NCBI GenBank assembly: GCA_028284225.1
Contig: JANQSD010000013.1
Location: 136,422 to 200,421, forward strand
Length of the DNA stretch: 64,000 bases
DNA from: Arenicellales bacterium
GTDB taxonomy: Bacteria; Pseudomonadota; Gammaproteobacteria; Arenicellales; JAHEKD01
Reading direction: 5' to 3'
Part shown: positions 1,973 through 51,103 of the stretch, piece after piece
How positions within the stretch are numbered: the stretch's first letter is position 1
Layout: each line of letters starts with the position of its first letter
Made by a program: the position numbers and the translations under genes
The notes under the pieces: generated by a model
Told to the model about the DNA's origin: nothing
Databases searched by the model: none
Seen by the model: only the letters and a program-made list of their open reading frames with translations

Positions 1973-3766
1973 ATGTCAATTCCTTACAATGCACCTATTG
2001 AAGACATGTTATTCGCTTTAACTACGAATTCAAATTTAAGCCATTTGCAATCACTCTCAGCCTATGAAGAATGTTCAGATGACTTAGTTGAAGCCGTATT
2101 AACTGAGGCCGGAAAGTTAGCCAGTGAGGTGCTGGCACCAATAAACAGTTCAGGTAATGAGGCAGGGGTAGAATTACAGGACGACAAAGTTGTAACACCA
2201 GATGGCTGGCATGAGGCTTATCAGGCTTTTCAAACTGGTGGCTGGATGGGCCTGGGTTTTGATGTCAATCATGGTGGTCAAGGAATGCCTGCCGCTGTAT
2301 CAACGGCAACAAATGAAATCTGGCATGCTGCCAATATGGCATTTAGCCTTTGCCCTTTACTGACTCAGGGTGCTATTGAGGCGGTTATACAACATGGTAC
2401 GGATGAATTAAAAGAAAAATTCCTCGGCAAACTGATGGAAGGAGCCTGGTCAGGGACAATGAATTTAACAGAGCCTCAGGCAGGTTCGGATCTGGCATTA
2501 GTCAGGACATCAGCGACACCCAATGATGATCATTACCTTATTAAAGGCCAGAAAATATTTATCACTTATGGGGATCATGAGTTAACGGAAAACATTGCTC
2601 ATCTGGTTTTAGCCAGGTTGCCGGATGCTCCGGAAGGCGTTAAAGGAATTTCTTTATTTCTGGTGCCCAAGTTTTTAGTGGATGAAAATGGTCAACCAGG
2701 CGAACGTAACGATGTTAAATGCATAAAGGTTGAACATAAACTCGGCATTCACGCTAGTCCGACATGTGTTATGTCATACGGTGATCAGGGTGGGGCAGTC
2801 GGCTATTTGGTGGGTGAAGAAAATGCGGGACTTGCCTGCATGTTTACCATGATGAATAACGCCAGACATGGGGTTGGCCTGCAAGGTCTATCAATTTCAG
2901 AGCGAGCATATCAACAAGCACTGGCCTATGCGAATGAGCGTGTGCAAAGTAATCCGGCCGGATCGGATACAGCTCATGCAAAAATTATTAAGCACCCTGA
3001 TGTCAAACGCATGCTGCTTTTGGTCAAAACGAATAATGAGGCCATGCGCGGCCTGTGTTATTGGCATGCAAGCTGTATGGATTTAGCGAGCAAAGCGGAG
3101 GATGAAGAAGCTCGAAAGGAAAATTATAAAACACTGGAATTTCTCACGCCAATCGTAAAAGGTTGGTGCACAGAAATGGCAAATGAATTGACGTCCTACA
3201 GTGTTCAAGTACACGGAGGCATGGGCTATATTGAAGAAACCGGAGCTGCACAACATTACCGTGATGCTCGCATCACTGCCATCTATGAAGGCACCACAGC
3301 GATTCAAGCCAATGATCTGATGGGCAGAAAATTACTGCGTGATGAAGGTGTCGTTGCTCACCGTTTAATAGACTCTGCTTTAGAGTTTGTTGATCAGCTG
3401 GAGAAACTCGCCGGTCAACATTCATTTGCAATCATGAAAACAAAATTACGCGATGCCCTGGATGAGATGGCCCATGCAACAGAATGGATGCTTGAGAATG
3501 GCAAAAAAGATCCAGCATTAGTTGCGGCTGCCTCTGTTAATTATTTGATGCTATGTGGTTTAACCTTATCCGGCTTAAAACTGATTGAACAGGCGTTTTA
3601 CGCACAGCAATTACTTGATGCTGAAGAACCACCCGAAAATGAAGATTATTTAAAAAGCAAAATACTTAGTGCAGAATTCTATGCGTCACAAATGTTACCC
3701 AGAGGCGCAGCGTATGAGGATATGATATTACGCGGGTCGCAAAGTATCCTGAACGCAACATTATAA
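1973..3766 (+). CDS. Large acyl-CoA dehydrogenase (about 600 aa FadE/DmdC-like type with N- and C-terminal extensions)
   Basis: 597 aa. ACAD middle and C-terminal motifs are present (NLTEPQAGSDL, KIFITYGDH, GGMGYIEETGAAQHYRDARITAIYEGTTAIQANDL), plus a long helical C-terminal domain. Confidence 0.85.
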   Translation: MSIPYNAPIEDMLFALTTNSNLSHLQSLSAYEECSDDLVEAVLTEAGKLASEVLAPINSSGNEAGVELQDDKVVTPDGWHEAYQAFQTGGWMGLGFDVNHGGQGMPAAVSTATNEIWHAANMAFSLCPLLTQGAIEAVIQHGTDELKEKFLGKLMEGAWSGTMNLTEPQAGSDLALVRTSATPNDDHYLIKGQKIFITYGDHELTENIAHLVLARLPDAPEGVKGISLFLVPKFLVDENGQPGERNDVKCIKVEHKLGIHASPTCVMSYGDQGGAVGYLVGEENAGLACMFTMMNNARHGVGLQGLSISERAYQQALAYANERVQSNPAGSDTAHAKIIKHPDVKRMLLLVKTNNEAMRGLCYWHASCMDLASKAEDEEARKENYKTLEFLTPIVKGWCTEMANELTSYSVQVHGGMGYIEETGAAQHYRDARITAIYEGTTAIQANDLMGRKLLRDEGVVAHRLIDSALEFVDQLEKLAGQHSFAIMKTKLRDALDEMAHATEWMLENGKKDPALVAAASVNYLMLCGLTLSGLKLIEQAFYAQQLLDAEEPPENEDYLKSKILSAEFYASQMLPRGAAYEDMILRGSQSILNATL

Positions 3767-3873: not shown

Positions 3874-4911
3874 GTGTTTCAAATTATAAAGCGGCTGATT
3901 ATTACAGCCTTTTGCATGTTCACCGGACTTGTTTATGCAGCCGGTGATTCTTCAGAGTCAGACAGTATTAAGCCCAAAGAAGATATATGCGTACAAGAAT
4001 ATGCTTCTGAACATTGGCTTGATAAAACGCAAGCAGCCACCTTTACCGGCATGTGCAAAACCGTGAGGTGGTTTGACCGGCTATTCGGTAAGGACAAGCC
4101 TTTTGATGATAAAAAGTTCGGTGGCAAAGTAGTGCTCGGTTTCAAAGATACAGAGCGTGATGGTTTTGACCCCAAACTCAGAGTGCGGATTAAATCCAAA
4201 CTACCCAATGCCAGCAAAAGAATGAATGCGTTTATCGGGCGGGTCGATGAAGATGAATTTATTAGTGATTCTAACCAGCGCCCGGATGCAGTCAGTGACT
4301 CTGCATCCGTCAGACGTAGTGATGATGAAGAATCTGAGTGGTTGATCGGTTTAGGTTACAGTAATCCAAAAAATGCAAAAAAAGGTTTTGATTATTCAAT
4401 AGGGGCAAAAATAAGTAGCGGCCTGAATCCTTATGCTAAAGTTCGTTACCGCTATAACTTTAAAATGCCCGAAACACATTTTCTGCGAGCTACCCAGACC
4501 TTATTCTGGCAAAACGATGATGGTTACGGGACTACTACTAATTTAAATTACACCTATGTTTACAGTTACACAGATATTTTGGAATTGGGTGCCAGTGCCA
4601 AGTTCACCGAAGATGAAAACCAATGGGAATGGGTAACCGGAGCCTCCTGGTTCCATCGCCTCCAGAATGGTCACGGTATTGCCGCACGTACCTATATCCG
4701 CGGAGAAGAAGAAAACTCTGAAAGTGTTCCGGAATATGGTGTTGTTTTGACCTATAGACGTCCTTTTTTACGCGACTGGCTATTTCTTGAAGCGGCAGTG
4801 CAACATCAATGGATTCAAGACAACGCAGGCGAACCACGGGATCAATCTTTTGGCTTCGGCTTGCAATTAGAAATGGAAGTAGGGGATTACCGCAAACGCC
4901 GAAAAGAATAA
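3874..4911 (+). CDS. Hypothetical exported protein, possibly an outer-membrane beta-barrel
   Basis: N-terminal signal-like sequence (LIITAFCMFTGLVYAAG). The C-terminal half has alternating aromatic/polar strands (YRYNF.., LNYTYVYSY.., WVTGASWFH..). No family was recognised. GTG start. Confidence 0.4.
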   Translation: MFQIIKRLIITAFCMFTGLVYAAGDSSESDSIKPKEDICVQEYASEHWLDKTQAATFTGMCKTVRWFDRLFGKDKPFDDKKFGGKVVLGFKDTERDGFDPKLRVRIKSKLPNASKRMNAFIGRVDEDEFISDSNQRPDAVSDSASVRRSDDEESEWLIGLGYSNPKNAKKGFDYSIGAKISSGLNPYAKVRYRYNFKMPETHFLRATQTLFWQNDDGYGTTTNLNYTYVYSYTDILELGASAKFTEDENQWEWVTGASWFHRLQNGHGIAARTYIRGEEENSESVPEYGVVLTYRRPFLRDWLFLEAAVQHQWIQDNAGEPRDQSFGFGLQLEMEVGDYRKRRKE

Positions 4912-5038: not shown

Positions 5039-5647
5039 TCAATCAAAATGATCGGGAAAATTCAGTTTCAAATATGACTTGATGATTTTTCGATTTGTTT
5101 GATAACTGTATTGTTTCGGGTTAAGGTGTGCAGTCCACCAGAATCCCAGCAACATGGCGCTCAGTGCGGCACTAACATGCTTAACATTGACCGCTTGATA
5201 GTTTCCATTGTTAATAATCGATTCTATTAATCTGTAAGTATCCTGATCGTACTTTCTATCTCGATTAGCGTTAAACTGTTTATATAAACCTTTTGCCTCG
5301 CCCCAAAATGTATACCAAACTGAAATCAAATCCGGTTTTTCGATGGGTAATTTAAGATCATAGTCAACCAAGCGCATAAGTTTTTTTTCTGCACTAAGCG
5401 TTTTACTTGACTCTAAAATTTCATTCCATTGTTGATTGTATTCTGCGCCAATCTCACTAAGAACAATTTTCAGCATCTCGTTTTTTGATTTAAAATGGAA
5501 CACCACCAGCGTTCTAGATACACCAGCGATTTGTGCAATACGATCTAAAGTTGTATCGCATAGTCCGCGTGTCGCAATACATTTTATCGCAGCATCAAGA
5601 ATCACTTTACGCCTGGCTACACCTTTCTCTAGTCGTTTATCACTCAC
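5039..5647 (-). CDS. TetR/AcrR-family transcriptional regulator (BetI-like)
   Basis: N-terminal HTH 'ILDAAIKCIATRGLCDTTLDRIAQIAGVSRTLVVFHFKSKNEML'. It is divergent from the amine-dehydrogenase operon. Confidence 0.85.
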   Translation of the reverse strand: MSDKRLEKGVARRKVILDAAIKCIATRGLCDTTLDRIAQIAGVSRTLVVFHFKSKNEMLKIVLSEIGAEYNQQWNEILESSKTLSAEKKLMRLVDYDLKLPIEKPDLISVWYTFWGEAKGLYKQFNANRDRKYDQDTYRLIESIINNGNYQAVNVKHVSAALSAMLLGFWWTAHLNPKQYSYQTNRKIIKSYLKLNFPDHFD

Positions 5648-5669
5648 TACTGATTAACAAAATATTAAA

Positions 5670-5699
5670 TTGACTGACTTGTTAGTCAGTAATTATAAT
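5670..5699 (+). promoter_or_regulatory. Putative sigma70 promoter of the amine operon with an embedded palindromic operator
   Basis: TTGACT (5670-5675), an 18-nt spacer, then TATAAT (5694-5699). The perfect inverted repeat ACTGACT-TGTT-AGTCAGT (5673-5690) occupies the -35/spacer region. This is a typical TetR operator geometry, 46 nt upstream of the ATG at 5736. Confidence 0.55.
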
Positions 5700-5735
5700 A
5701 AGCAAATTCACCACGTGTAAAGAGCAACTTTATCT

Positions 5736-7808
5736 ATGACTGCGGTCAACACCAACTACGATATTTTATTTGAACCCATCGATATTGGTCCGGTGACGGC
5801 AAAAAATCGTTTTTATCAAGTTCCGCACTGTACCGGATTAGGTTGGATCAGACCACGAATGCTGACTGATTTACGGGTTGCTAAGGCAGAAGGCGGTTGG
5901 GGGGTGGTTTGCACTGAATATTGCTCAATCCACCCAAATTCTGATGATATGCCGTACCCATATCAGTCCTTATGGGATCAAAGAGATATAAAGTTCCATG
6001 CTTTAATGACAGAAAAAATACATGAGCATGGCGCCCTTGCGGGTGTAGAACTTTGGGCAGGGGGTCCGCGAGCGTCAAATTTCTTTTCCCGTGAAGTGCC
6101 CATCAGTGTCAGTAATCAACCCAATCTTGTCGGTCATCCACAACAAACTCGCAGAATGGACAAAAAGGACATCAGAGCGTTACGTCAATGGCACAAAGAC
6201 GCTGCAATACGCGCTAAACATGCTGATTTTGATATTGTCTATGTTTATGCTACCCATGATTATTTGCTCTCGCAATTTCTGTCATCCGCAACCAATACAC
6301 GTACAGATGAATATGGCGGCAATCTGGAAAATCAGGTTAGATTAGTAAAAGAGCTGATCGAAGAAACCAAGGATGCGGTCGGAGACCGCTGTGCGGTAGC
6401 AGTACGTTATGCTGTAGACGAACCCTGTGGACAAGATGGAATACCCTTATATGATGAAAAAAGGGAAATGTTTAATTTAATAGCCGAATTGCCGGATTTA
6501 TGGGATATAAACATTACTGATTATTCCTTTGAGATGGGGGCCTCCCGGTTTGTGAAAGAGGCGTCGCTTGAACCCTATATGGATTTTGTCAAATCAGCGA
6601 CGACCAAACCTGTGGTTTCAGTTGGCCGCTTTACCTCAGCTGATACAATGGCAGCTCAAATCAGGCGCGGCCTTGTTGACTTTATTGGTGCAGCGAGACC
6701 CTCCATCGCTGACCCCTTTCTCCCTAATAAGATTAAGCAAGGTCGCTATGACGAAATCCGTGAATGTATAGGTTGTAATATTTGTTATGCAGCTGATGCC
6801 TTGGCTGTACCCATTCGTTGTACACAAAATCCAACAATGGGTGAGGAGTGGCGGCGTGGCTGGCACCCAGAGAAAGTGCCTGCAAAAAGTTCTGATTCTG
6901 AAATACTCATTATCGGATCTGGGCCCTGTGGATTAGAAGCATGTAGAGTGTTAGGTCAACGGGGTTATAGAGTCATATTGGCTGAGGCCGATGACAACCT
7001 GGGGGGTAGGGTAAAAAAGGAAAGCCATTTGCCGGGATTAAGCGAATGGATACGCGTTGTTGATTACAGAGTGCAGCAAATCAACAAAATGGCTAATGTT
7101 CAGGTTTATCGCCATAGTCAATTAACGGCAGCAGATGTGATTGAATTAAATGTCGATCATGTGGCCATCGCGACTGGCGCCCGCTGGCGCAATGATGGAT
7201 TTGGTCGTCATCATCTTAAATCCCTTTCTAGACTAACGACTGATATACAGATATTTACCCCTGATGATATTATGGAGGGTAACTTACCGATGGGTAAAAC
7301 GGTTGTCTATGATGACGATGGATATTACATGGGCAGTGTGATAGCGGAAAAAATTATAGCTGCAGGCAATAAAGCGCTTAGCTTTGTTACTACTGACGAT
7401 AAGGTTTCAAGCTGGAGTGTTAATACAAGCGAGCAGCATCGTGTCCAAAGACGGTTAATTGAGATGGGCATATCGATTACTACAGCTCATTCGTTAATGT
7501 CTTTTGATGGCAATGTGGTCAGCTTCTGTTGTAACTACTCAGATCAAAAAAAATCAATTGATGCAGATTCTATTGTGCTGGTCACGGCACGTACACCTAA
7601 CGATACTTTATATTATGAGCTGGACGAATATTTAAATTCCGAACCGGAAGAAAAACTGTTTACTGTCAGCAAAATCGGTGACTGCGATGCACCGTCAATA
7701 ATTGCTGATGCTGTATTTGCAGGGCACAAATGGGCTCGTGAGTTAGACCAACCTGTCGATTCAAGCAATCCGTTTAAATACGATAGGGTAGAATTCCATG
7801 GGGTTTAG
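5736..7808 (+). CDS. Trimethylamine/dimethylamine/histamine-dehydrogenase-family amine dehydrogenase (FMN OYE-like domain, 4Fe-4S, ADP-binding domain)
   Basis: 690 aa. 'YDILFEPIDIGPVTAKNRFYQVPHC' matches the TMADH N-terminus, including the Cys that forms 6-S-cysteinyl-FMN. The 4Fe-4S ligands CIGCNIC...C and a second Rossmann motif 'ILIIGSGPCGLEA' are present. Confidence 0.85.
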   Translation: MTAVNTNYDILFEPIDIGPVTAKNRFYQVPHCTGLGWIRPRMLTDLRVAKAEGGWGVVCTEYCSIHPNSDDMPYPYQSLWDQRDIKFHALMTEKIHEHGALAGVELWAGGPRASNFFSREVPISVSNQPNLVGHPQQTRRMDKKDIRALRQWHKDAAIRAKHADFDIVYVYATHDYLLSQFLSSATNTRTDEYGGNLENQVRLVKELIEETKDAVGDRCAVAVRYAVDEPCGQDGIPLYDEKREMFNLIAELPDLWDINITDYSFEMGASRFVKEASLEPYMDFVKSATTKPVVSVGRFTSADTMAAQIRRGLVDFIGAARPSIADPFLPNKIKQGRYDEIRECIGCNICYAADALAVPIRCTQNPTMGEEWRRGWHPEKVPAKSSDSEILIIGSGPCGLEACRVLGQRGYRVILAEADDNLGGRVKKESHLPGLSEWIRVVDYRVQQINKMANVQVYRHSQLTAADVIELNVDHVAIATGARWRNDGFGRHHLKSLSRLTTDIQIFTPDDIMEGNLPMGKTVVYDDDGYYMGSVIAEKIIAAGNKALSFVTTDDKVSSWSVNTSEQHRVQRRLIEMGISITTAHSLMSFDGNVVSFCCNYSDQKKSIDADSIVLVTARTPNDTLYYELDEYLNSEPEEKLFTVSKIGDCDAPSIIADAVFAGHKWARELDQPVDSSNPFKYDRVEFHGV

Positions 7809-7844: not shown

Positions 7845-9434
7845 ATGAATAATTACGACGCTATTGTTATCGGTGCCGGTCATAATGGTTTGGTGAATGC
7901 GTGCTATTTGGCTCGTGCCGACTTAAAAACGCTGGTATTGGAACGTAATCCATATATTGGTGGCGCATCAGTTACGCGTGAATTATATCCGGGATTTAGC
8001 TATACAAATTGTTCTTATGTATGCAGCCTGTTTAGACCGGAAATATTCCGTCAGCTTGAACTTTCCAGGCACGGCTTACAAGTCATTCCTTATGATGGCG
8101 GTTGTACATTTACACAAGACGGAAATTACCTGGCCACTTATAATGATCATGAGGCGCAGCGCCGCGAGTTTGCCAGGTTTAGTGCGAGGGATGCCGAAGC
8201 CTATGATGATTATGCAACTGATGTAATGCGGCATTGTAGGTTCATCAAACCCTGGCTATTACGAACACCACCTGATCCTGTATCAAGAAAAGCTAAAGAC
8301 ATCAAAGGGCTTTGGCAACTTTACAAAGATTTACAAGTACTTACTGAGGCGCAAATCTACGATACGCTGGAGTTTTATACTATTAGCTGTGGTGATTATT
8401 TAAATCGCTACTTTGAATCGGACGTCATTAAGGGGCATATTTCCAATAGTTCAATCATCGGTACCGGGCTTGGTCCATATTCACCTGGATCAGCTTATGT
8501 TCTATTGCATCATTATATGGGTGAAGTCGATGGCCGCATAGGGTCGTGGGGGGTGGCACGTGGTGGTATGGGCGCGATAGCCAATGCACTGGCCAGTTCA
8601 TTCAAAGCCAGCCAGGGTGAAATTAAAACCGATTGTAGCGTGGAAAATCTAATCGTTAAGGAAGGTAAGGCTGTGGGTGTCGCCCTGGAAAATGGTGATG
8701 AATATTATGCAGATACTATTGTTTCAAATCTGGATGTTAAGCGTACCTTTCTTAAAGTCGTAGATAAGCAACACTTGCCGCAAGATTTTGTTACTCAGGT
8801 ACAGCAGTTTAAGATTCGTGGCTCTTCTGGAAAATTAAATATAGCACTGGATGGAATGCCGACATTTCCTGCTCTACCTGAAGGTTCAACCGCTATTCGC
8901 GGACATGTCAACATTATTGATAGTATGGAACGGCTGGAGCGGGGTTATGATGACTGGAAAAACGGAACCTGGTCTAAAGACCCTTTTGTTGATTTGCTCA
9001 TCCCCACCCAGACTGACCCGACAATGGTGCCTCCCGGCAAGCAAATGATGTCCGTTTTTGTGCAATATGCGCCGCCTGTTCTAAACACCGGTGAGTGGAC
9101 TGAAGAAGATAAACAGGCCTTTGGGCAAACTGTTATTGATGCGATTGCACAATATAGTCCCGACTTCAAAGATCTGATTTTGCATGCTGAAATCAGAACT
9201 CCTCAAGACATAGAAAACGAAGCAGGTTTGACTCAGGGCAACATATTTCACGGAGAGCTGACACTGGATCAGCTCCTGTTTAACCGTCCCATACCCGGCT
9301 ATGCACAGTATCGTTCTCCCATACCCGGATTTTATATGTGCGGTTCCAGCACCCACCCGGGAGGCGGGGTGATGGGCGCTCCAGGTGCTAATGCAGCGAG
9401 GGAAATATTGGCCGACAAGAGGATGACTGTATGA
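7845..9434 (+). CDS. FAD-dependent oxidoreductase, PYROXD2/phytoene-desaturase (CrtI)-like family, copy A
   Basis: 529 aa. Motifs seen: 'YDAIVIGAGHNGLV', 'GSAYVLLHHYMGEVDGRIGSWGVARGGMGA' and C-terminal 'GNIFHGELTLDQLLFNRP...YMCGSSTHPGGGVMGAPGANAA'. Its stop overlaps the next start (ATGA, 9431-9434). Confidence 0.8.
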   Translation: MNNYDAIVIGAGHNGLVNACYLARADLKTLVLERNPYIGGASVTRELYPGFSYTNCSYVCSLFRPEIFRQLELSRHGLQVIPYDGGCTFTQDGNYLATYNDHEAQRREFARFSARDAEAYDDYATDVMRHCRFIKPWLLRTPPDPVSRKAKDIKGLWQLYKDLQVLTEAQIYDTLEFYTISCGDYLNRYFESDVIKGHISNSSIIGTGLGPYSPGSAYVLLHHYMGEVDGRIGSWGVARGGMGAIANALASSFKASQGEIKTDCSVENLIVKEGKAVGVALENGDEYYADTIVSNLDVKRTFLKVVDKQHLPQDFVTQVQQFKIRGSSGKLNIALDGMPTFPALPEGSTAIRGHVNIIDSMERLERGYDDWKNGTWSKDPFVDLLIPTQTDPTMVPPGKQMMSVFVQYAPPVLNTGEWTEEDKQAFGQTVIDAIAQYSPDFKDLILHAEIRTPQDIENEAGLTQGNIFHGELTLDQLLFNRPIPGYAQYRSPIPGFYMCGSSTHPGGGVMGAPGANAAREILADKRMTV

Positions 9435-10999
9435 GCAATCAATACGACATCATTATCATCGGAGCAGGACTCAATGGATTAGTATGCGCCAATATTCTGG
9501 CTAAAAAAGGCCGCAAGGTGCTAGTGCTGGAAGCCAACAAACAAGTCGGAGGTCTGGCCAATACACGGGAATTTGCAAGCGGTTTTAAAGTTTCGGCGGG
9601 TGCTCATCTGCTCTATGGCTTGCACCCTGATATATACCGACTCTGTGACGTACAGGAATCAAAAATTGAATTTGCCGATAAAAATATTTCCACATTAGTC
9701 ATTAACCAAAACAAGGAATTTATTAATTATTCAAGCGGAGAGGATTCACAAATTATTTACAGTAGCTCATTGTCTGAACAACAAAATTCAGATTGGAGCA
9801 ACTTTCAAAACCGGATGAAAACCTTCAGCGATATTTTATTCGATCTCGCTAACAAAACGCCGCCCCGATTAAAGAATGGTTCAATACAGGATTATAAAAC
9901 CCTGTTCAACACCGGTTTAAAGCTTAAACGTCTTGATAAACAAAATTTGCGCCAATTCCTGAGAATAATTGGCATGAATATATATGATCTGGCAGATGAA
10001 AGTTTCACAGATAACTTACAAAAGGCTGCCATTTGTTTTGAATCAGCCCTTGGTACACGATTGGGGCCGAGAGCGCCGAATACCGTCTACAATTGGCTTA
10101 ATCGTTATTCAATCATTAACCGACAACCTGCGGGTTTAAGTGTGCCTAGAGGAGGTATAGGGAGCTTGTCTCAGGCATTTGCCAACGCCGCCTTGATCAA
10201 GGGTGTGGATATCAGTGTTTCCAGCCGAGTAGAAAAAATTCTGATTGCTGACAATCAAGTCAAAGGTGTGCAATTATCTGGCGGTGAAAAATTTGCTGCC
10301 CGGCAGGTTATTTCTAATGCAGACATTAAAAAAACCATGTTATCCATGGTTGGCCCCGAAAATATTGATACGGATGTAGTCAGGCGCGTTTCGTATATTC
10401 CTATGCAAGGCACCACAGCCAAAATGCATTTAGCGTTAAATCAGCTGCTTGAGCCCATAACTCATAACGTAAGCGATTTTCAATCAAGAATTATTTACGC
10501 GCCTGATGCAGATTTTATTGAGCGAGCCTCAAACTCGATCAAATACAACCAATACACTCATGAACCAACTTTTGAGATTACATTTCCATCGGTACAGGAT
10601 TCAAGTTTAGCGCCGGCAGGTAAACATGTAATGTCGGTTCTGATTCCGTATGTACCTTATGAACATAAAGAGGGTTGGGCCCAGCGCAAAGAGCGATTTG
10701 AAAACCATATTATCGAACAGCTTGAATATATTTTTCCGGGCATACATGCGGCAATAGAGCATGTTGAAACGCTAACACCTGCTGATATTGAACGGCAGTT
10801 TAATATTACCGGCGGGCACTGGCATCACGGTGAGATTGGCCTGGAGCGTTTTATGATGCTAAGGCCAACTGCTGGATTTGCCCAATACAAGACACCCATA
10901 GATGGATTATTTCTATGTGGGGCCGATTGCCACCCGGGTGGTGATTTAAGCGGTGCCCCGGGTATGAACGCAGCGAACACGGTGTTACAAAGCAAATGA
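9431..10999 (+). CDS. FAD-dependent oxidoreductase, PYROXD2/CrtI-like family, divergent copy B
   Basis: 522 aa. Motifs seen: 'YDIIIIGAGLNGLV' and C-terminal 'GGHWHHGEIGLERFMMLRP...LFLCGADCHPGGDLSGAPGMNAA'. It has 4-nt overlaps with both neighbours. Confidence 0.75.
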   Translation: MSNQYDIIIIGAGLNGLVCANILAKKGRKVLVLEANKQVGGLANTREFASGFKVSAGAHLLYGLHPDIYRLCDVQESKIEFADKNISTLVINQNKEFINYSSGEDSQIIYSSSLSEQQNSDWSNFQNRMKTFSDILFDLANKTPPRLKNGSIQDYKTLFNTGLKLKRLDKQNLRQFLRIIGMNIYDLADESFTDNLQKAAICFESALGTRLGPRAPNTVYNWLNRYSIINRQPAGLSVPRGGIGSLSQAFANAALIKGVDISVSSRVEKILIADNQVKGVQLSGGEKFAARQVISNADIKKTMLSMVGPENIDTDVVRRVSYIPMQGTTAKMHLALNQLLEPITHNVSDFQSRIIYAPDADFIERASNSIKYNQYTHEPTFEITFPSVQDSSLAPAGKHVMSVLIPYVPYEHKEGWAQRKERFENHIIEQLEYIFPGIHAAIEHVETLTPADIERQFNITGGHWHHGEIGLERFMMLRPTAGFAQYKTPIDGLFLCGADCHPGGDLSGAPGMNAANTVLQSK

Positions 11000-12192
11000 T
11001 TAATTTTTCACGCTCACTCGAACCGAACAATACCATGGTGATTCCAACACCATTTCATGAACGTAGTTTTGCTGCGAACAGGCGAGGGCATTGGACCAGC
11101 TGGGCCGGCTACACTATCGCCGATGAATATACACATGCAGATCTGGAATATTTTGCAGTACGCAATCAATGTGGTGTTTTTGATCTAACACCAATGATCA
11201 AGTACCACATTTCCGGGGTTGATGCCGAGGCTTATTTGAATAAATTATTTACCCGCGACATTAGAAAAATAAAAGCCTCGCAAGTTGCCTATGTACTATT
11301 TTGTAATGAATCCGGTTACACCCTGGATGACGGGACCTTATTTAAATTTTCAAACTCCGAGTATATTTTTTGCTCTCAGGACCGGCACCTGCCATGGCTG
11401 CTGGACAGCGCAATCGGTTTCGATGTCGAAATCAAAGACAGGACTGATAAAATCGCGGCATTAGCCGTGCAGGGTCCAACATCAGCTGCAATCTTGAAAC
11501 GAATGGGCTTAGACGGCATTGAAAATCTGCCTCCATTCCAGATGCAGTCATTCCAATATCAGCGTGATGACTTGATTGTTTCTCGAACTGGTTTTACCGG
11601 TGACTTAGGTTATGAATTATGGATTGATCCGTATCTTGCAATTAAGCTTTGGGATGATCTGTTTACCTGCGGACAAAACTACGGCATTGAACCCTTTGGC
11701 TCCAAAGCACTGGAAATGTTGCGTATTGAAGCCGGATTTATTTTGCCGCATAAAGATTTCCTGCCGGCAAATCATGTCATTCGCGTTAATCGAGGGCGTA
11801 CACCATTTGAATTGGGTTATGGCCGGCTGGTTGATTTCGACAAGGGATTTTTTAATGGCCGCCAGGCATTACTCAAAGCACAGCAAAATGGGCCACGTTA
11901 CCAACTGGTGGGATTAGAAATAGACGGTAACAAACCCGCTTACGACGCTTGGATTTATCAAAACAAGCGCAAAAATGTCGGTACGATTACTTCTGCCATG
12001 TGGTCACCTTCTTGTAAGACTAACATAGCCTTGGCCTGGTTAGATGCTAACGCTAAAACCGACAACCTTTGGGTTGATATTTACACCAATAAAGAACTTA
12101 AATGGCACAAGAACATGGTGTCATGCAAAGTTGTAAAGCGTCCTTTTTTTAACCCCGCCAGAAGAAATGCTGTACCAGCATTAGATTTTTAA
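10996..12192 (+). CDS. Aminomethyltransferase-family (GcvT-like, folate-binding) protein
   Basis: 398 aa. 'YFAVRNQCGVFDLTPMIKYHISGVDAEAYLNKLFTRD', 'ALAVQGP' and 'RTGFTGDLGYELW' are typical T-protein/DmdA-family motifs. Its start overlaps the stop of copy B (ATGA, 10996-10999). Confidence 0.8.
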   Translation: MINFSRSLEPNNTMVIPTPFHERSFAANRRGHWTSWAGYTIADEYTHADLEYFAVRNQCGVFDLTPMIKYHISGVDAEAYLNKLFTRDIRKIKASQVAYVLFCNESGYTLDDGTLFKFSNSEYIFCSQDRHLPWLLDSAIGFDVEIKDRTDKIAALAVQGPTSAAILKRMGLDGIENLPPFQMQSFQYQRDDLIVSRTGFTGDLGYELWIDPYLAIKLWDDLFTCGQNYGIEPFGSKALEMLRIEAGFILPHKDFLPANHVIRVNRGRTPFELGYGRLVDFDKGFFNGRQALLKAQQNGPRYQLVGLEIDGNKPAYDAWIYQNKRKNVGTITSAMWSPSCKTNIALAWLDANAKTDNLWVDIYTNKELKWHKNMVSCKVVKRPFFNPARRNAVPALDF

Positions 12193-12203: not shown

Positions 12204-13652
12204 ATGATGAAAACTGAACAATTACAGCATCTCGATAATCAATTCGTGCACCCCTGGGAAGACGTTAAATCAATCGGTAAAAACAAACGCACCGTTATAA
12301 CCGGTGGAACAGGTATCTATGTAACCGATTCAGATGGCAATCGCTTAATCGATGGGCCTGCTGGTATGTGGTGTGTCAATATTGGGCACGGCCGTGAAGA
12401 AATGGCGCAAACTATCGCATCTCAATGTATGCAGCTTTCTTATGTTAGCCCCTGGAGTTTGGCTAATTCTCCAGCTGCCAAATTAGCAAATAAACTGGTT
12501 TCTATCGCGCCGGAGGGGATGAATCATGTGTTCTTTACTACCGGCGGCTCAACAGCAGTTGATTCAGCATTGCGATTTTTGATTTTCCGTAATAATTTTC
12601 TTGGCCAAACGGAGAAAAAACATTTTATCTCACGTGCCAATGCCTATCATGGCAGTACTTTTTTATCCTCTTCTGCTTGCGGCAAAACCCGGGATAAGAA
12701 CTTTAACGATTTTGATAAAGAACATTTTCACTTTCTAAGTGACCCTAATCCTTATCGTCGCAAACAAGGTCAATCTATTGAAGAATTTCGTCAATTGTTG
12801 GTCGACGAACTTGAGCAGAAAATTCTGGAGTTAGGCGCCAATAAAGTAGCTGCTTTTATTGCGGAACCGATTCTTGCCTCCGGTGGTGTAATCATTCCTC
12901 CAGACGGCTATCACAAAGCCTGTCATGAGATTTGTAGAAAGTATGATGTCGCCTATATATCTGATGAGGTTGTTACAGGATTTGGTCGCTTGGGCCATTT
13001 TTTCTCGAGTAAAGTGGTATTTGACATCGATGCGGATATTATTACTTGTGCAAAAGGTTTGACATCGGGCTATGTACCATTAGGCGCATTCCTGGTTTCA
13101 GACAGACTTTTGGACGATTTTAAAGATACCGATGAAAGCACCGGTGTTTTTTCAAACGGTTATACGTATTCAGGCCATCCTGTTTCATGTGCAGCAGCGT
13201 TAAAGAACATTGAAATTATTCAAGACGAAAAAATTTTAGAACATGTTCGTGAGGTTTCACCATATTTCCAGCAACGTTTGCATGGATTTATAGATTATCC
13301 AATCGTAGTCGATACACGTGGCATGGGGCTAATGGGTTGTATAGAATGTGAAATTAACCCTGAACAAAATGACCAGCAGCAAAGCACCGATCAGAAAGGT
13401 TATGCAGTGCCAAGGTCAAGCCCTCCACAAATATCAAAGGCAGATAAATTAGCCATTGATTACGATCTTGGCAATAGAATCGACAAACACTGTCAAGCGC
13501 TGGGTTTAATCGTCAGACCTATTATCAATATGTGTGTATTTTCACCACCATTGGTTATTACTAAAAAGCAAATCGATGAAATGTTTAATTTACTGGAAAA
13601 GGGCCTGCAACTGACCATGAAAGATTTATCAAGTGAAGGGCTGCTGGATTGA
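12204..13652 (+). CDS. Class-III (omega) aminotransferase, SpuC/putrescine-pyruvate-aminotransferase-like
   Basis: 482 aa. Motifs seen: 'GPAGMWCVNIGHGREEM', 'FFTTGGSTAVDSA', 'AEPILASGGVIIPP', 'ISDEVVTGFGRLG' and 'CAKGLTSGYVPLG' (PLP-lysine region). Confidence 0.85.
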   Translation: MMKTEQLQHLDNQFVHPWEDVKSIGKNKRTVITGGTGIYVTDSDGNRLIDGPAGMWCVNIGHGREEMAQTIASQCMQLSYVSPWSLANSPAAKLANKLVSIAPEGMNHVFFTTGGSTAVDSALRFLIFRNNFLGQTEKKHFISRANAYHGSTFLSSSACGKTRDKNFNDFDKEHFHFLSDPNPYRRKQGQSIEEFRQLLVDELEQKILELGANKVAAFIAEPILASGGVIIPPDGYHKACHEICRKYDVAYISDEVVTGFGRLGHFFSSKVVFDIDADIITCAKGLTSGYVPLGAFLVSDRLLDDFKDTDESTGVFSNGYTYSGHPVSCAAALKNIEIIQDEKILEHVREVSPYFQQRLHGFIDYPIVVDTRGMGLMGCIECEINPEQNDQQQSTDQKGYAVPRSSPPQISKADKLAIDYDLGNRIDKHCQALGLIVRPIINMCVFSPPLVITKKQIDEMFNLLEKGLQLTMKDLSSEGLLD

Positions 13653-13655
13653 AGT

Positions 13656-14873
13656 ATGAGTTCGCTCGCACCTGCATTGAGTTTTGACATTAAAAGCCTG
13701 GTTCACAGGCAAAAACCTGGGTATTCGCTCGAACAAATTTTCTATGTTGATCCGGAAATTTATAATCATGATTTGGAAAAAATTTTTTTCGCCGATTGGT
13801 TATACATCTGCCATAGCTCCCAAATTCCAGATCCGGGGGATAGCTATACCTACGATATTGATAAGGAATCGATTATTGTTAGTCGAAATCAATCTGGAAA
13901 TATAAATGCATTCGCTAACGTTTGCCGCCATCGTGGTTCCAGAATTTGTGAGTCCGGTAAAAGCACTCAAAAACGTTTTGTCTGCCCTTATCATGCCTGG
14001 ACTTATGACTTAGATGGTGAACTTTTGTCTGCCAGACAGATGGGAGAAGACTTTGATAAATCACAATTCAAGTTGAACAAATTACCTATTGAAGTGTTTT
14101 GCGGTTTTATATTTGTCAGTTTGTCCTCAAATCCGATACCCTTTGCAGAATTAAAGCAGAATCTTAAAGCGCCATTGTCTGTTTTCGATCTGGACAACAC
14201 TAAAGTTGTTGCGCATGAAGTTCATCCCATACATGCAAATTGGAAGCTGGTATTCGAAAATTTTGATGAATGCTATCACTGCGGCCCTGCACATAAGGAG
14301 TTTTCGGCCTCACACTCTCTCATGTTGAGTGATGAGCGGCGTACAGAATTTGATCAACAGATCACCCTGCGAGCACAGGAAATCGGCATATGTGCTGATG
14401 AAATTAAACTTGACCAGCCTGAAGCATTAATGAAACAACAAGCGCCGTATCATTATGATCGCTACGCGTTATTTGACGGATATTTAACCGGCAGTGAAGA
14501 TGGAAAGCCTGTTGCACAATTATTGGGCAATATTCAAGACTATGATAGCGGCGCCAGTAATGTTCAGCTTGGCAATTTAACATTCTTACTCGTCTATTGT
14601 GATCATGTGGTGCTGTATCGATTTACACCGCGTGCAGTAGATTTGACTGATGCGGAAATAATTTGGCTAGTTCGCAGTGACGCAAGTGAACATGATGTTG
14701 ATCTTGAGCGCATGAAATGGTTATGGAATGTCACCACAATTGCTGACAAGGACATCATTGAACGTAACCAAAAAGGTGTATTATCACGTTTCTATCAACC
14801 CGGGCCTTATGCACCTATGGAAATCTATACGATTAATTTTATACAATGGTATTTACAAGCAATCGTAACTTAA
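13656..14873 (+). CDS. Rieske [2Fe-2S] non-haem-iron oxygenase, alpha-subunit type (GbcA/CntA/Stc2-like)
   Basis: 405 aa. Rieske motif 'CRHRGSRIC...CPYHAWTY'. Mononuclear-iron region 'NWKLVFENFDECYHCGPAH'. Confidence 0.85.
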   Translation: MSSLAPALSFDIKSLVHRQKPGYSLEQIFYVDPEIYNHDLEKIFFADWLYICHSSQIPDPGDSYTYDIDKESIIVSRNQSGNINAFANVCRHRGSRICESGKSTQKRFVCPYHAWTYDLDGELLSARQMGEDFDKSQFKLNKLPIEVFCGFIFVSLSSNPIPFAELKQNLKAPLSVFDLDNTKVVAHEVHPIHANWKLVFENFDECYHCGPAHKEFSASHSLMLSDERRTEFDQQITLRAQEIGICADEIKLDQPEALMKQQAPYHYDRYALFDGYLTGSEDGKPVAQLLGNIQDYDSGASNVQLGNLTFLLVYCDHVVLYRFTPRAVDLTDAEIIWLVRSDASEHDVDLERMKWLWNVTTIADKDIIERNQKGVLSRFYQPGPYAPMEIYTINFIQWYLQAIVT

Positions 14874-14885
14874 CAGGGACCTACT

Positions 14886-15236
14886 ATGATCAAAACAGCA
14901 GCCGATTTAATCGCCGATGCACAAACCAAGATTAACTGCGTTAATGTAAAGCAGGCAAAAGAACTGTACCAGGCTTCTGATAATGCAGTCATTCTGGATG
15001 TGCGAGAAGCTGACACGGCGGAAAAATCAAAGCTAAAAGATTCAGTCAATATTTCACGGGGTCTGATCGAAATGAAGGTGCCCAACTTGTGCTCTGATCC
15101 TGACACACTGATTTTGACACACTGTGGTGGGGGAGGCAGGGCTTCATTGGCAGCAGCCACCTTAAAGGAAATGGGCTATAACAATGTTCATGCGGTTACT
15201 GCTACCTATGAAGATATTAAAAAAGAATTTGGCTGA
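14886..15236 (+). CDS. Single-domain rhodanese (sulfurtransferase-like) protein
   Basis: 116 aa. Active-site loop 'LTHCGGGGRAS'. It is the last gene of the plus-strand operon. Confidence 0.8.
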   Translation: MIKTAADLIADAQTKINCVNVKQAKELYQASDNAVILDVREADTAEKSKLKDSVNISRGLIEMKVPNLCSDPDTLILTHCGGGGRASLAAATLKEMGYNNVHAVTATYEDIKKEFG

Positions 15237-15319: not shown

Positions 15320-16186
15320 TTAAGCCGTAGTTTCTGTATCGAAGTCGAGCTTGTCTGCAGCTGCCATTTGCTGATCACGCTGCCGTTGCTTTTCCTGGCG
15401 CCACATAATGTAGCCAGCCAGTATTACACCAATAGCCACCGTAACAATAATAATAGTCGCCAGTGCATTAATATCAGGCCTCAATCCCAGGCGAATTCGG
15501 GAGTAAATCAAAATGGGTAACGTATTCGACCCCGGACCTGTAACAAAGCTGGCAATTACCAAGTCATCCAGCGAAAGCGTAAATGCCAACAACCATCCCG
15601 CTAACATGCCCGGTGCAAGTATCGGCAGGGTAATATCAGTTAATACTCTTAACGGTTTCGCCCCTAAATCCTGGGCAGCTTCTTCCAATGATTCATCCAT
15701 ACCGGTTAAACGAGACTGAATAATCACAGCGACATAGGCCATTGAAAAGGTGATATGTGCAATGGTAATCGTGGTAAATCCACGTTCAGATGGCCAACCA
15801 ATGAATTGAGACAAAGTAATAAATAGCAATAGTAGTGACAGGCCAGTGATAACTTCCGGCATAACCAATGGAGCCGAAATCATCCCGGAAAACAGGGTTC
15901 TGCCCCTAAAACGACCAAAACGCACTAATGCCAAACCAGCAAGAGTACCCATTAATGTTGCAAAGGTTGCATTGACGACTGCGATTTTCAGGCTTAACAA
16001 CAGGGCTTGCCAGACTTCTGGGCTTTCAAACAACACCTTGTACCATCTAAAAGAAAAACCTCCCCAGATAGGCACAATTTTAGAATGGTTAAATGAATAA
16101 ACAATCAACAACACCATGGGGATATATAAAAACGCCAGCCCAAAGCAAAGCATTGAAAACATGAAGGTAGAGCGTTGCTTTTTCAT
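15320..16186 (-). CDS. potI: Polyamine (putrescine-type) ABC transporter permease
   Basis: 288 aa, multi-TM. Contains the EAA-type loop 'EEAAQDLGAKPLRVLTDITLPIL'. Its start overlaps the upstream permease stop by 1 nt. Confidence 0.8.
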   Translation of the reverse strand: MKKQRSTFMFSMLCFGLAFLYIPMVLLIVYSFNHSKIVPIWGGFSFRWYKVLFESPEVWQALLLSLKIAVVNATFATLMGTLAGLALVRFGRFRGRTLFSGMISAPLVMPEVITGLSLLLLFITLSQFIGWPSERGFTTITIAHITFSMAYVAVIIQSRLTGMDESLEEAAQDLGAKPLRVLTDITLPILAPGMLAGWLLAFTLSLDDLVIASFVTGPGSNTLPILIYSRIRLGLRPDINALATIIIVTVAIGVILAGYIMWRQEKQRQRDQQMAAADKLDFDTETTA

Positions 16187-17121
16187 TAAGATTCACTCTC
16201 CTTTGACTGAATATGTTGATACAACATCATTGGCGCTACCAGCACTATTAACAAAGCAATGGCTACTGCAGAGGCAACCGGCCAGTCATGGTTATTATTA
16301 AATTCATTGTAAAGCACTTTGCCTATCATCAAGGAGTTGCCGCCGCCAAGTAGATCTGGGATAACGTATTCACCTGTGGCAGGAATAAACACCAAGAGTG
16401 ACCCGGCAATTATTCCCGGCATGGTCATCGGCAATGTAACAGTCAAAAAAGTAGTGATCGGTTTTGCTCCAAGATCAGCCGCAGCTTCGTGCAAGGTTAT
16501 ATCCAGCTTTTCCATGTTGGCATAGAGCGGCAAGATCATAAAAGGCAAATAGGAGTAAACAATGCCTAAATAAACCGCAAACTGGGTATAAAGCATGCGT
16601 ATGGGTTGATCGATAATACCCAACCAGATAAGTAAATTATTAATCGTGCCCTGATCGGCTAATAGCCCCATCCAGGCATATACACGCAGTAAAAAAGAAG
16701 TCCAGAAGGGAAGAATAATCAACATGAGTAGAATATTCTTTTTGGTAGGACTAGAACGGACAATTGCATAAGCCATCGGATAACCGATAATTAAGCAAAT
16801 CAATGTTGATATAAATGCAACTTTAACTGAGTTTATATACGTCGTAATGTATAGTTCGTCTTCCCATAAATAAGCGAAGTTATCAAACAGCACTCTGATT
16901 TGTAATGCACCGTCTTCCGCCCATTGAAATAGAGATGAAAATGGAGGGCTGGCAATCAGAGATTCAGCAAAGCTTATTTTTAATACAATAAAAAATGGAA
17001 CCAGAAAGAAAATGAACAGCCAAATATATGGAATACCTACAACCAGAGTTTTCCAGCTGGACTGAAGTTTATAACTCAGGTTTTTTACCAATGAATTCGA
17101 GATTTGACTAGCTTCAGACAT
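16186..17121 (-). CDS. potH: Polyamine (putrescine-type) ABC transporter permease
   Basis: 311 aa, multi-TM. Contains 'HEAAADLGAKPITTFLTVTLPM'. It follows the ATPase gene with a 1-nt gap. Confidence 0.8.
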   Translation of the reverse strand: MSEASQISNSLVKNLSYKLQSSWKTLVVGIPYIWLFIFFLVPFFIVLKISFAESLIASPPFSSLFQWAEDGALQIRVLFDNFAYLWEDELYITTYINSVKVAFISTLICLIIGYPMAYAIVRSSPTKKNILLMLIILPFWTSFLLRVYAWMGLLADQGTINNLLIWLGIIDQPIRMLYTQFAVYLGIVYSYLPFMILPLYANMEKLDITLHEAAADLGAKPITTFLTVTLPMTMPGIIAGSLLVFIPATGEYVIPDLLGGGNSLMIGKVLYNEFNNNHDWPVASAVAIALLIVLVAPMMLYQHIQSKESES

Positions 17122-17122
17122 G

Positions 17123-18268: not shown

Positions 18269-18295
18269 CTACGAACTTCCTCTATGCTAAAAGTA

Positions 18296-18321
18296 AAAGT
18301 GCCATTTAGAAATGGCACTTT
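18296..18321 (-). terminator. Intercistronic hairpin between the binding-protein and ATPase genes (partial terminator or RNA-stabilising element)
   Basis: Palindrome AAAGTGCCATTT-AG-AAATGGCACTTT read from the sequence. On the minus strand it is followed by TTACTTTT. Confidence 0.5.
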
Positions 18322-18331
18322 ATTAGAACTA

Positions 18332-44285: not shown

Positions 44286-44287
44286 CT

Positions 44288-47031: not shown

Positions 47032-47045
47032 AATAACTCCATTAT

Positions 47046-48566: not shown

Positions 48567-48667
48567 TAAGAACCTTTAAAAAATTGATTTAGATGCTGCA
48601 ATATTAGCTTTTTGTTTTGAAAATATCGATAACAAAATGACAGAATTTATGCGTATTTTTTACCCAC

Positions 48668-48701
48668 AAATAAAAAGAGGGCTTTCATATAGAAAGCCCT
48701 C
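48668..48701 (-). terminator. Rho-independent terminator after the usp gene
   Basis: GAGGGCTTTC-ATATA-GAAAGCCCTC is a perfect 10-bp stem. On the minus strand it is followed by TTTTTATTT. It starts 20 nt after the stop at 48722. Confidence 0.75.
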
Positions 48702-48721
48702 GATATTAGTGAAAAATCAGA

Positions 48722-49171: not shown

Positions 49172-49195
49172 AATATTTCTCCTTAAATGTAAGAT

Positions 49196-51097: not shown

Positions 51098-51103
51098 TTC
51101 TCC

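Follow-up and report, generated by a model that had tools for sequence, protein, structure and literature searches.

A conserved trio of PYROXD2-like and GcvT-like genes encoding a candidate tetrahydrofolate-coupled N-demethylase

We analyzed a trio of overlapping genes in a 64,000-nucleotide stretch of DNA from an Arenicellales bacterium (GenBank assembly GCA_028284225.1, contig JANQSD010000013.1), which is referred to here as the window. The trio lies on the plus strand and encodes the following three proteins, each with an ATG start: A, a PYROXD2-like flavin adenine dinucleotide (FAD) flavoprotein of 529 residues and the probable catalytic subunit (7845-9434); B, a 522-residue divergent paralogue of A (9431-10999); and T, a stand-alone GcvT-type folate-binding protein of 398 residues (10996-12192). 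Sequence inspection revealed ATGA stop/start overlaps at both junctions; the A/B junction at 9431-9434 reads GACTGTATGAGC, and the B/T junction at 10996-10999 reads AGCAAATGATTA. A preliminary description of this DNA had proposed that two paralogous flavoproteins and a T-protein-like gene are chained by such overlaps, and the list of open reading frames (ORFs) and the sequence both bore this out. Pfam agreed with the family assignments, as Amino_oxidase and NAD_binding_8 matched both A and B, and GCV_T and GCV_T_C matched T. The operon on the plus strand runs in the order dehydrogenase, A, B, T, class-III aminotransferase, Rieske oxygenase and rhodanese, with intergenic gaps of 3-36 nt.

Profile hidden Markov model and structure searches were run with both flavoproteins; A and B passed the Pfam flavin amine oxidoreductase model PF01593 (48.6 and 88.6 bits, respectively, against a gathering threshold of 19.8) and failed the CrtI and CrtO models, and A matched PYROXD2 over its full length. 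The DAO matches on A and B were confined to the N-terminal Rossmann segment. The two proteins were 28% identical to each other. When 61 A, 56 B and 4 PYROXD2 sequences were aligned, the FAD-binding motifs proved invariant in all three groups alike; these comprised G10, G12 and G15 (GxGxxG), E33 and H504-P-G-G (the C-terminal HPGGG motif) in A, and G11, G13, G16, E34 and H501-P-G-G in B. The columns that were at least 95% conserved numbered 204 in A and 56 in B. We also found 36 positions that were invariant in A and PYROXD2 but different in B (for example S57, Y58, H222, H223, N466-I467-F468 and S501), among them the motifs SY..SL.R, G..YVLLHH.M and GNIF, whereas only two positions showed the reverse pattern. 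The invariants restricted to B were GGHWHHGE, H463-W464-H465, R214, R353 and Y372. B is a fast-evolving, divergent paralogue that has retained its dinucleotide-binding motifs.

The AlphaFold2 (AF2) monomer models of A and B were confident, with mean predicted local distance difference test (pLDDT) scores of 88.5 and 83.8, respectively. Both models matched the CrtI fold first, followed by NicA2, MAO and putrescine oxidase. The best structural match was 4rep, with template modelling (TM) scores of 0.79 for A and 0.74 for B; 4dgk was also matched, and the sequence identity to the CrtI structures was 16-19%. The best PDB sequence matches of A and B were likewise CrtI-type, at 67-70 bits, with 67 bits between A and CrtI 4dgk. 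In the public databases the flavoproteins carry generic names such as 'phytoene dehydrogenase-like', yet the NCBIfam model crtI_fam (TIGR02734) gave 114.2 bits for A and 132.9 bits for B against a cut-off of 238.1, and the CrtO ketolase model (NF045689) gave 302.2 and 202.4 bits against a cut-off of 1000. The annotated window ORFs and the five Pfam-annotated loci L081-L085 described below included no carotenoid genes (phytoene synthase, cyclase and the like), and neither the scores nor the gene context placed A and B among bona fide carotenoid desaturases. Because both proteins scored below the NCBI cut-offs for CrtI and CrtO, we judge that they are not carotenoid enzymes.

For the comparison with PYROXD2, a human sequence served as a search probe only, and the alignments were made with retrieved proteins that NCBI or UniRef names PYROXD2. 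The co-linearity of A with this family, as first described, was upheld; A was 38% identical to mouse PYROXD2 over 548 columns, which cover the full length (379 bits, E 7e-130). B was 29% identical to PYROXD2 (210 bits), so the term 'PYROXD2-like pair' is accurate for A and only partly so for B, the divergent paralogue. A HMMER scan of 1.84 billion cluster representatives revealed 2,182 clusters at E <= 1e-30, and eukaryotic PYROXD2-type proteins, approximately 37% identical to A, were among the top matches. Some proteins of prokaryotic length were nearer to PYROXD2 than A (P0371 and P0374 at approximately 46%, P0442 at 47.5%). P0369 shares 48% identity with A, and its gene overlaps a downstream gene for a second flavoprotein. 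In a neighbor-joining (NJ) distance tree of 153 sequences, A, B and PYROXD2 formed separate monophyletic groups, and the common ancestor of A and PYROXD2 spanned 98 of the 153 sequences; A and animal PYROXD2 were not sister groups in this tree, which, being based on distances only, is a weak test. From its full-length similarity, A can be assigned to the PYROXD2 family, with an orthology that the distance tree did not show. No NCBIfam equivalog covers A, B or T. In the literature we found neither a characterization of the trio nor an enzymatic function of PYROXD2, which is consistent with the earlier statement that no reaction has been defined for the family.

T passed both Pfam models, GCV_T with 196.1 bits (threshold 25.6) and GCV_T_C with 47.9 bits (threshold 25.9). 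Its residues 30-390 aligned with the T-proteins 1yx2 and 1woo and with the folate half of Tdm (9q5a, 167 bits), and the motifs DD, TGFTGDLGYE and LRIEAG aligned with both the T-proteins and Tdm. The PDB matches also included the SoxA structures 1vrq and 2gag and, from the fused DMGDH/SARDH/dimethylglycine oxidase group, 5l46, 4p9s and 1pj5; DMGDH and TSOX, both among these matches, are precedents for demethylases that combine a flavoprotein with a T domain. Among the NCBIfam models, the Tdm folate domain ranked first (254 bits), followed by GcvT (228), DmdA (148), SoxA (134) and LigM (65); of these, the Tdm, GcvT and SoxA domains form methylene-tetrahydrofolate, and DmdA and LigM form methyl-tetrahydrofolate. 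Each score fell below its cut-off: 254.5 bits against 1100 for the Tdm model NF053776, of which only positions 382-759 were matched; 160.7 against 235.85 and 227.6 against 300 for the GcvT models TIGR00528 and PRK00389, respectively; 147.9 against 410 for DmdA; 134.2 against 1164 for SoxA; and 65.2 against 580 for LigM. Because of this ranking, with every score below its cut-off, T is best classified as a distinct member of the GcvT family that lies closer to methylene-tetrahydrofolate-forming domains than to direct methyltransferases. The annotated ORFs of the window and the inspected loci contained neither gcvH nor gcvP near the trio, and the ORF list contained no small-subunit ORFs of heterotetrameric sarcosine oxidase between or beside A, B and T.

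Gene-neighborhood statistics were obtained by scanning one genome per species for relatives of A, which gave 570 confirmed relatives, and 80 loci were kept. Five more loci came from exact-protein look-ups (L081-L085), and the comparison set thus comprised 85 loci from Alpha- and Gammaproteobacteria. In tblastn searches with the window proteins as queries, B lay directly 3' of A in 79/79 of the loci whose downstream DNA extended for 800 nt or more, and where it extended for 2.4 kb or more, T came next after B in 72/72, always in the same order and on the same strand. The trio therefore proved to be conserved as a unit, and with B after A in every case and T after B in every case, its arrangement is not due to chance. 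Based on inferred starts and stops, A and B overlapped by 1, 4, 8 or 14 nt in 71/84 loci (85%) and lay no more than 30 nt apart in 80/84, while B and T overlapped in 51/74 loci (69%) and lay no more than 30 nt apart in 70/74; the gene calls of the public assemblies gave the same overlap pattern at both junctions. The identity to the window proteins across the loci was 63-81% for A, 28-53% for B and 44-65% for T. The gammaproteobacterial carriers were Porticoccaceae, SAR92, Woeseiaceae, Steroidobacteraceae, Arenicellales and a sponge-associated Poriferihabitaceae metagenome-assembled genome (MAG), and the alphaproteobacterial carriers were Labrys, Mesorhizobium, Shinella, Aquibium, Kiloniellales, SAR116 and a Fonsibacter MAG. 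A 5.05-Mb MAG contig that encodes a cluster mate of A contained the same operon as the window. At the other extreme were minimal loci, in which the trio was accompanied by a TetR gene alone (Labrys) or, in another locus, by a transaminase alone. From these minimal and varied loci we conclude that A-B-T is the constant core, surrounded by a variable periphery for amine import, transamination and oxygenation.

Second, paralogous A/B(/T) modules were observed within approximately 10 kb of the first in some marine gammaproteobacterial MAGs (L019:18150-20892, L044:801-2369 and L052:2-2393). The presence of paired trios in one genome suggests substrate diversification.

The remaining genes of the operon and its surroundings were largely amine-related. 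Upstream of the operon lies a divergent TetR repressor gene (5039-5647, minus strand; Pfam TetR_N and TetR_C_6), whose product has a BetI-type C-terminal domain and is the likely operon regulator. BetI models scored 74.5 bits on this protein, below their cut-offs, and a TetR homologue stood beside the trio in 58/85 loci. The 88-nt divergent region contained promoter-like sites that matched the consensus at 11 of 12 positions on the plus strand (5670-5699) and on the minus strand (5721-5692), and a 17-nt inverted repeat (5663-5679 and 5684-5700, 82% complementary) overlapped the predicted plus-strand promoter. On the strength of these consensus matches, 5663-5721 is annotated as a putative divergent promoter region in which the repeat at 5663-5700 is a plausible TetR operator. 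Further upstream, we observed a 597-residue acyl-CoA dehydrogenase of the long AidB/DmdC-like type with an Acyl-CoA_dh_C domain (1973-3766, plus strand), which had the same length, domains and place in L085 and no link to the trio in other lineages. Between this gene and the TetR gene, 3874-4911 on the plus strand encodes a 345-residue protein that has a hydrophobic N-terminus and matched neither Pfam nor NCBIfam models, and L085 carries a 343-residue gene without a Pfam match at the equivalent position.

The first gene of the operon (5736-7808, plus strand; Pfam Oxidored_FMN and Pyr_redox_2) encodes a flavin mononucleotide (FMN) and iron-sulfur enzyme of the histamine/trimethylamine dehydrogenase family. 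The preliminary description had placed a trimethylamine dehydrogenase (TMADH)-family enzyme here; the family was correct (OYE and Pyr_redox), and the closest match was histamine dehydrogenase 3k30 (686 bits), with TMADH at 528 bits. A role of this dehydrogenase as a TMADH/DgcA/StcD-type demethylase in a three-step series was considered and was weakened by the histamine dehydrogenase match and by the presence of the gene in only 13/85 loci. The two neighbors named earlier on the 3' side of the trio were both present. The class-III (omega) aminotransferase at 12204-13652 on the plus strand resembles SpuC/polyamine:pyruvate transaminase, exceeded the PRK07036 cut-off (646.8 against 618 bits) and matched 3i5t, 6gwi (putrescine aminotransferase) and 9j4z (polyamine:pyruvate transaminase) in the PDB. 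Class-III transaminases occurred in 49/85 loci, and a second type, similar to glutamate-1-semialdehyde (GSA) aminomutase, lay directly upstream of A in 25 loci. The Rieske non-haem iron oxygenase at 13656-14873 (plus strand; Pfam Rieske and Ring_hydroxyl_A) belongs to the GbcA/Stc2/CntA group, with 300 bits on the GbcA model (cut-off 670) and 234 bits to the stachydrine demethylase 3vca/4qup; any Rieske homologue was found in 47/85 loci. The last operon gene, which encodes a rhodanese-domain protein (14886-15236, plus strand; Pfam Rhodanese), had counterparts in only 2/85 loci.

Downstream of the operon, a PotFGHI-type ATP-binding cassette (ABC) importer occupies 15320-19432 on the minus strand (Pfam BPD_transp_1 twice, ABC_tran with TOBE_2, and SBP_bac_8); it consists of two permeases (15320-16186 and 16186-17121), an ATPase (17123-18268) and a binding protein (18332-19432). 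The binding protein was most similar to SpuD/SpuE of P. aeruginosa (3ttm, 322 bits) and to PotF of E. coli, and the PotF model gave 322 bits against a cut-off of 636. A transporter lay near the trio in about 46-50 of the 85 loci (ABC ATPase in 50/85, binding protein in 38/85). A second, more distant GbcA-like Rieske oxygenase was identified by Pfam at 19527-20711 on the minus strand (GbcA 140 bits), and its homologues adjoin the trio in Rhizobiales and Steroidobacteraceae loci. The electron transfer flavoprotein (ETF):ubiquinone oxidoreductase at 21173-22837 on the minus strand (Pfam Fer4_ETF_QO and ETFQO_UQ-bd) was near the trio in this genome only (1/85); it is a possible electron sink for the dehydrogenases, and its tie to the trio is tentative.

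Clustering of ORFs across the loci revealed further recurrent neighbors. An ADP-forming acyl-CoA synthetase directly followed T in 20 loci, and acyl-CoA dehydrogenase, a gamma-glutamylputrescine-synthetase-like ligase, a PuuB-like DAO oxidase and aldehyde dehydrogenase also recurred. In particular, marine Gammaproteobacteria (L010, L026, L045, L083 and others) carried a long operon of GSA-like transaminase, A, B, T and ADP-forming acyl-CoA synthetase, sometimes enoyl-CoA hydratase, and then a gamma-glutamylpolyamine-synthetase-like ligase, a Rieske oxygenase and a PuuB-like oxidase, with acyl-CoA dehydrogenase, TetR and potFGHI genes upstream; this operon looks like a complete catabolic pathway. 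Additionally, an S-adenosylmethionine (SAM)-dependent methyltransferase of approximately 273 residues, with weak similarity to sarcosine/dimethylglycine N-methyltransferase and ArsM, adjoined the trio in Rhizobiales and some Rhodospirillales; it lay immediately upstream of A in L047, L058, L065 and L080 and was also present in L011 and L021. We weighed beta-alanine betaine, gamma-butyrobetaine, N-methylated diamines, methyl-lysines, methylamine via gamma-glutamylmethylamide, and the long-chain N-methyl polyamines of diatoms and sponges as substrates; none was singled out by the context because the neighbors vary between lineages.

The window also contained methylated-amine genes apart from the trio. 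A fused 804-residue protein with DAO, FAO_M, GCV_T and GCV_T_C domains, of the DMGDH/SARDH type, is encoded at 38285-40699 on the plus strand. Because this canonical fused type is present, the genome already possesses a conventional folate-coupled demethylase besides the trio, which is an additional and different system. We observed a second methylated-amine cluster at 43428-52663 on the minus strand, which comprises a class-IV aminotransferase (43428-44285), an amidohydrolase (44288-45730), a DAO-type oxidoreductase (45730-47031), a non-Pyl MttB-family methyltransferase (47046-48566, 616 bits), a 633-residue OpuAC-domain protein (49196-51097) and a BCCT transporter (51104-52663).

PYROXD2 is a mitochondrial protein and a human mitochondrial disease gene (PMC8777681). 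The link between PYROXD2 and methylated amines in genome-wide association studies, noted in the preliminary description, was confirmed by the literature. The PYROXD2 locus was associated with urinary trimethylamine (TMA) and plasma dimethylamine (DMA) (PMC3169529), with N6-methyl-lysine and N6,N6-dimethyl-lysine in plasma, urine and cerebrospinal fluid (PMC9730628, PMC7878905) and with N2-acetyl-N6,N6-dimethyl-lysine (PMC13352909). According to published metabolite genetics, no other human locus is associated as strongly with N6-methyl- and N6,N6-dimethyl-lysine. A second hint came from an uninterrupted 816-codon ORF in L089 (1437-3887), in which a glutathione-dependent formaldehyde-activating (GFA) domain (PF04828) is joined to a PYROXD2-like flavoprotein with 47% identity to the mouse protein. 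The contig is eukaryotic-looking, with VMP1 as a neighbor. The fusion is an independent hint that the PYROXD2-like family makes formaldehyde. Human PYROXD2 genetics and this single fused sequence are thus two independent lines that fit N-methyl chemistry in the family. We also observed a stand-alone GFA gene 2.4 kb downstream of T in L084.

Taken together, we consider it probable that A, B and T are subunits or obligate partners of a tetrahydrofolate (THF)-coupled flavoprotein N-demethylase for methylated (poly)amines. In the proposed mechanism, the FAD of A would oxidize a secondary or tertiary alkylamine at its N-CH3 bond, yielding an iminium ion, and the one-carbon (C1) unit would be captured by T on THF as 5,10-methylene-THF, with no free formaldehyde, leaving the demethylated amine. 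B would pair with A and supply a second flavin site, act as a specificity module or serve as a scaffold, comparable in this with the alpha subunit of heterotetrameric sarcosine oxidase. We infer both this chemistry and the choice of catalytic subunit; A is the likelier one, as PYROXD2 and the stand-alone relatives of A work without partners. Under TetR control, the surrounding genes would form a pathway for a methylated amine or a polyamine-like compound that the PotF-type transporter would import. The Rieske oxygenase, the histamine-dehydrogenase-like enzyme or both may act on other substitution states, and the Rieske enzyme at 13656-14873 could act first, demethylating or hydroxylating an amine with more substituents. 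The freed primary amine would then be converted to an aldehyde by the SpuC-like transaminase. The recurrent neighbors handle amines (transaminases, Stc2/GbcA-like Rieske oxygenases, PotF-type transporters, BetI-type TetR and PuuB-like proteins), and we count them in favor of a demethylase. The flavin-dependent N-methyl oxidation with C1 transfer to THF that was first suggested for the trio was supported, since none of the refuting outcomes that could be checked in silico (a carotenoid assignment, a loss of the trio in other genomes or an unrelated reaction already assigned to the family) emerged; the complex and its activity are the conjectural parts of that suggestion.

Several observations weigh against this interpretation. 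The gene of P0371, one of the proteins nearest to PYROXD2, stands alone without B or T. Since PYROXD2 and its closest stand-alone relatives lack a T partner, the family can act without folate coupling. The case for a physical A/B/T complex was drawn from gene order and overlaps, which suggest it. Two apparent A-B fusions that could have served as evidence for a complex were rejected as probable assembly or annotation artefacts; the junction of P0010 (904 residues) was frameshifted and read HPRRRGDG... where HPGGGVMG was expected, and the B part of P0015 (890 residues) lacked its first approximately 160 residues through an internal deletion. The higher conservation of A allows an alternative division of labor, in which the variable B could bind varied substrates and A could have a constant role. 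Additionally, the genomic context is polyamine-type (PotF/SpuC-like) and not simply methylamine-type, and the neighbors point to ordinary polyamines, which carry no N-methyl groups. Finally, the GFA-PYROXD2 fusion is a database singleton.

The strongest rival to a THF-coupled complex is that A/B and T are consecutive enzymes. T would then be a folate-dependent methyltransferase, similar to DmdA or LigM, that removes a methyl group directly from an onium compound or amine, and A/B would be a heterodimeric amine dehydrogenase or oxidase for the product or another pathway intermediate. In its favor, the stand-alone GcvT-family proteins DmdA and LigM are demethylases complete in themselves, the DmdA model gives T 148 bits, some relatives of A stand alone, and gene overlap demonstrates co-expression and not association. 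In contrast, T was nearer to the methylene-THF-forming domains (Tdm 254 and GcvT 228 bits) than to DmdA (148, cut-off 410) or LigM (65), and the fixed-order linkage in 72/72 loci, with overlaps, across very different operons that include loci of TetR and the trio alone, is tighter than that of any other pathway gene. We therefore consider consecutive action unlikely.

Quite improbable, in our judgment, is a function of A/B as a polyamine oxidase or dehydrogenase that cuts an internal C-N bond of spermidine or norspermidine, with T in a non-canonical, folate-independent or scavenging role. Such an enzyme would suit the SpuD/SpuE/PotF-like binding protein, the SpuC-like transaminase and the gamma-glutamylpolyamine-synthetase-like and PuuB-like genes of many loci, and A/B share a Pfam family with polyamine oxidases and match putrescine oxidase in structure. 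However, the cleavage of an unmethylated polyamine gives no C1 unit and leaves a conserved, full-length T with intact motifs unexplained, Rieske oxygenases of the GbcA/Stc2 type, which perform N-methyl chemistry, occurred in 47/85 loci, and human PYROXD2 tracks N-methylated compounds and not polyamines. That A/B are carotenoid or isoprenoid desaturases or ketolases (CrtI/CrtO/CrtD) with T nearby incidentally is hardly credible; CrtO was the best NCBIfam match, CrtI 4dgk and 4rep were the best PDB sequence and structure matches and the public names point the same way, but the carotenoid models scored far below their cut-offs, the identity was 16-19% to CrtI compared with 38% to PYROXD2, carotenoid genes were absent near the trio here and in the inspected loci, and the linkage to T was absolute. 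Similarly, T could scarcely be a housekeeping glycine-cleavage T-protein beside two unrelated oxidoreductases, since it fell below both GcvT cut-offs, gcvH and gcvP were absent from the window and the inspected loci, and two trios lie close together in some genomes (L019, L044 and L052), unlike a housekeeping gene, even though a GcvT subfamily model was the second-best NCBIfam match (227.6 bits) and T aligned end to end with solved T-proteins.

Beyond the demethylase reading of A, B and T, we tentatively propose, as a joint possibility, that the PYROXD2 family consists of oxidative N-demethylases of omega-N-methylated alkylamines, that A/B/T is a third folate-coupled architecture, so far unrecognized, besides the fused DMGDH/SARDH and the SoxBDAG types, and that human PYROXD2 is the gene of the kidney epsilon-alkyllysinase. 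This activity, which converts free N6-methyl-lysine to lysine and formaldehyde, was described in 1963-64 (PMC3936616); its connection to PYROXD2 is our own inference. If true, the alkyllysinase assignment would explain the associations of PYROXD2 with methyl-lysines, TMA and DMA as well as the PYROXD2 mitochondrial disease. The trio also gives a first mechanistic and directly testable hypothesis for PYROXD2, which is among the most strongly replicated metabolite quantitative trait loci (methyl-lysines, TMA and DMA). The trio itself is widespread in Alpha- and Gammaproteobacteria (among them SAR11-like, SAR116, SAR92, Porticoccaceae, Woeseiaceae and Rhizobiales) and points to N-methylated (poly)amines that environmental bacteria draw from a pool so far unrecognized.

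Folate-coupled flavoprotein demethylases play a central part in how mitochondria and marine and soil bacteria turn over one-carbon units and methylated amines, and to our knowledge all of them use a DAO-type flavoprotein. With the trio, this group would gain a different flavoprotein family and a new arrangement of subunits; the reaction type is known, and the flavoprotein family and the three-gene architecture are new. Upon comparison with heterotetrameric sarcosine oxidase (SoxBDAG) and N-methylglutamate dehydrogenase, we found a similar combination of a catalytic flavoprotein, a second Rossmann-type subunit and a GcvT-like domain that leads to 5,10-methylene-THF. In SoxBDAG, the catalytic SoxB belongs to the DAO family, the T domain is fused to the alpha subunit, and gamma and delta subunits are present, whereas in the trio the two flavoproteins are of the CrtI/PYROXD2 type, T is encoded on its own and small subunits were not seen. 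DMGDH, SARDH, dimethylglycine oxidase and 4-methylaminobutyrate oxidase share flavin-dependent oxidative N-demethylation, folate capture of the C1 unit and a homologous T domain, but each is a single fused polypeptide (DAO, FAO_M and GCV_T) with a DAO-type flavin domain. The C-terminal folate half of Tdm was the best match to T and has the same proposed role, the capture of formaldehyde-level carbon from an N-methyl group; in contrast, the catalytic part of Tdm, to which its T domain is fused, is a metal-dependent DUF1989 domain, a flavoprotein is not involved, and T lacks DUF1989. A split layout of a flavoprotein gene and a stand-alone GcvT-like gene is also known from marine bacteria, where SAR11_1303/1304 place such a gene beside monomeric sarcosine oxidase (PMC3160333), but that system has a single DAO-type flavoprotein gene and not a CrtI/PYROXD2-type pair.

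The flavoproteins were similar, but not identical, to three further groups. Flavin amine oxidases (MAO, polyamine oxidase, LSD1, NicA2 and putrescine oxidase) have a similar fold, and A and B passed their Pfam model PF01593; the identity is only 13-17%, and those enzymes are homomeric, release free formaldehyde or aldehyde and have no folate partner. Within this superfamily, LSD1 is a precedent for N-methyl-lysine demethylation via an iminium ion. CrtI, CrtD and CrtO share the fold and the N- and C-terminal FAD motifs with A and B and provide the nearest solved structures, whereas the 16-19% identity, the missed cut-offs, the lack of a carotenoid context and the obligate folate-protein partner set A and B apart. 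Animal PYROXD2 belongs to the same family as A, with the FAD motifs and the 36 family-specific invariants in common, and differs in being a single protein without a B or T partner that was not sister to the A clade in the NJ tree.

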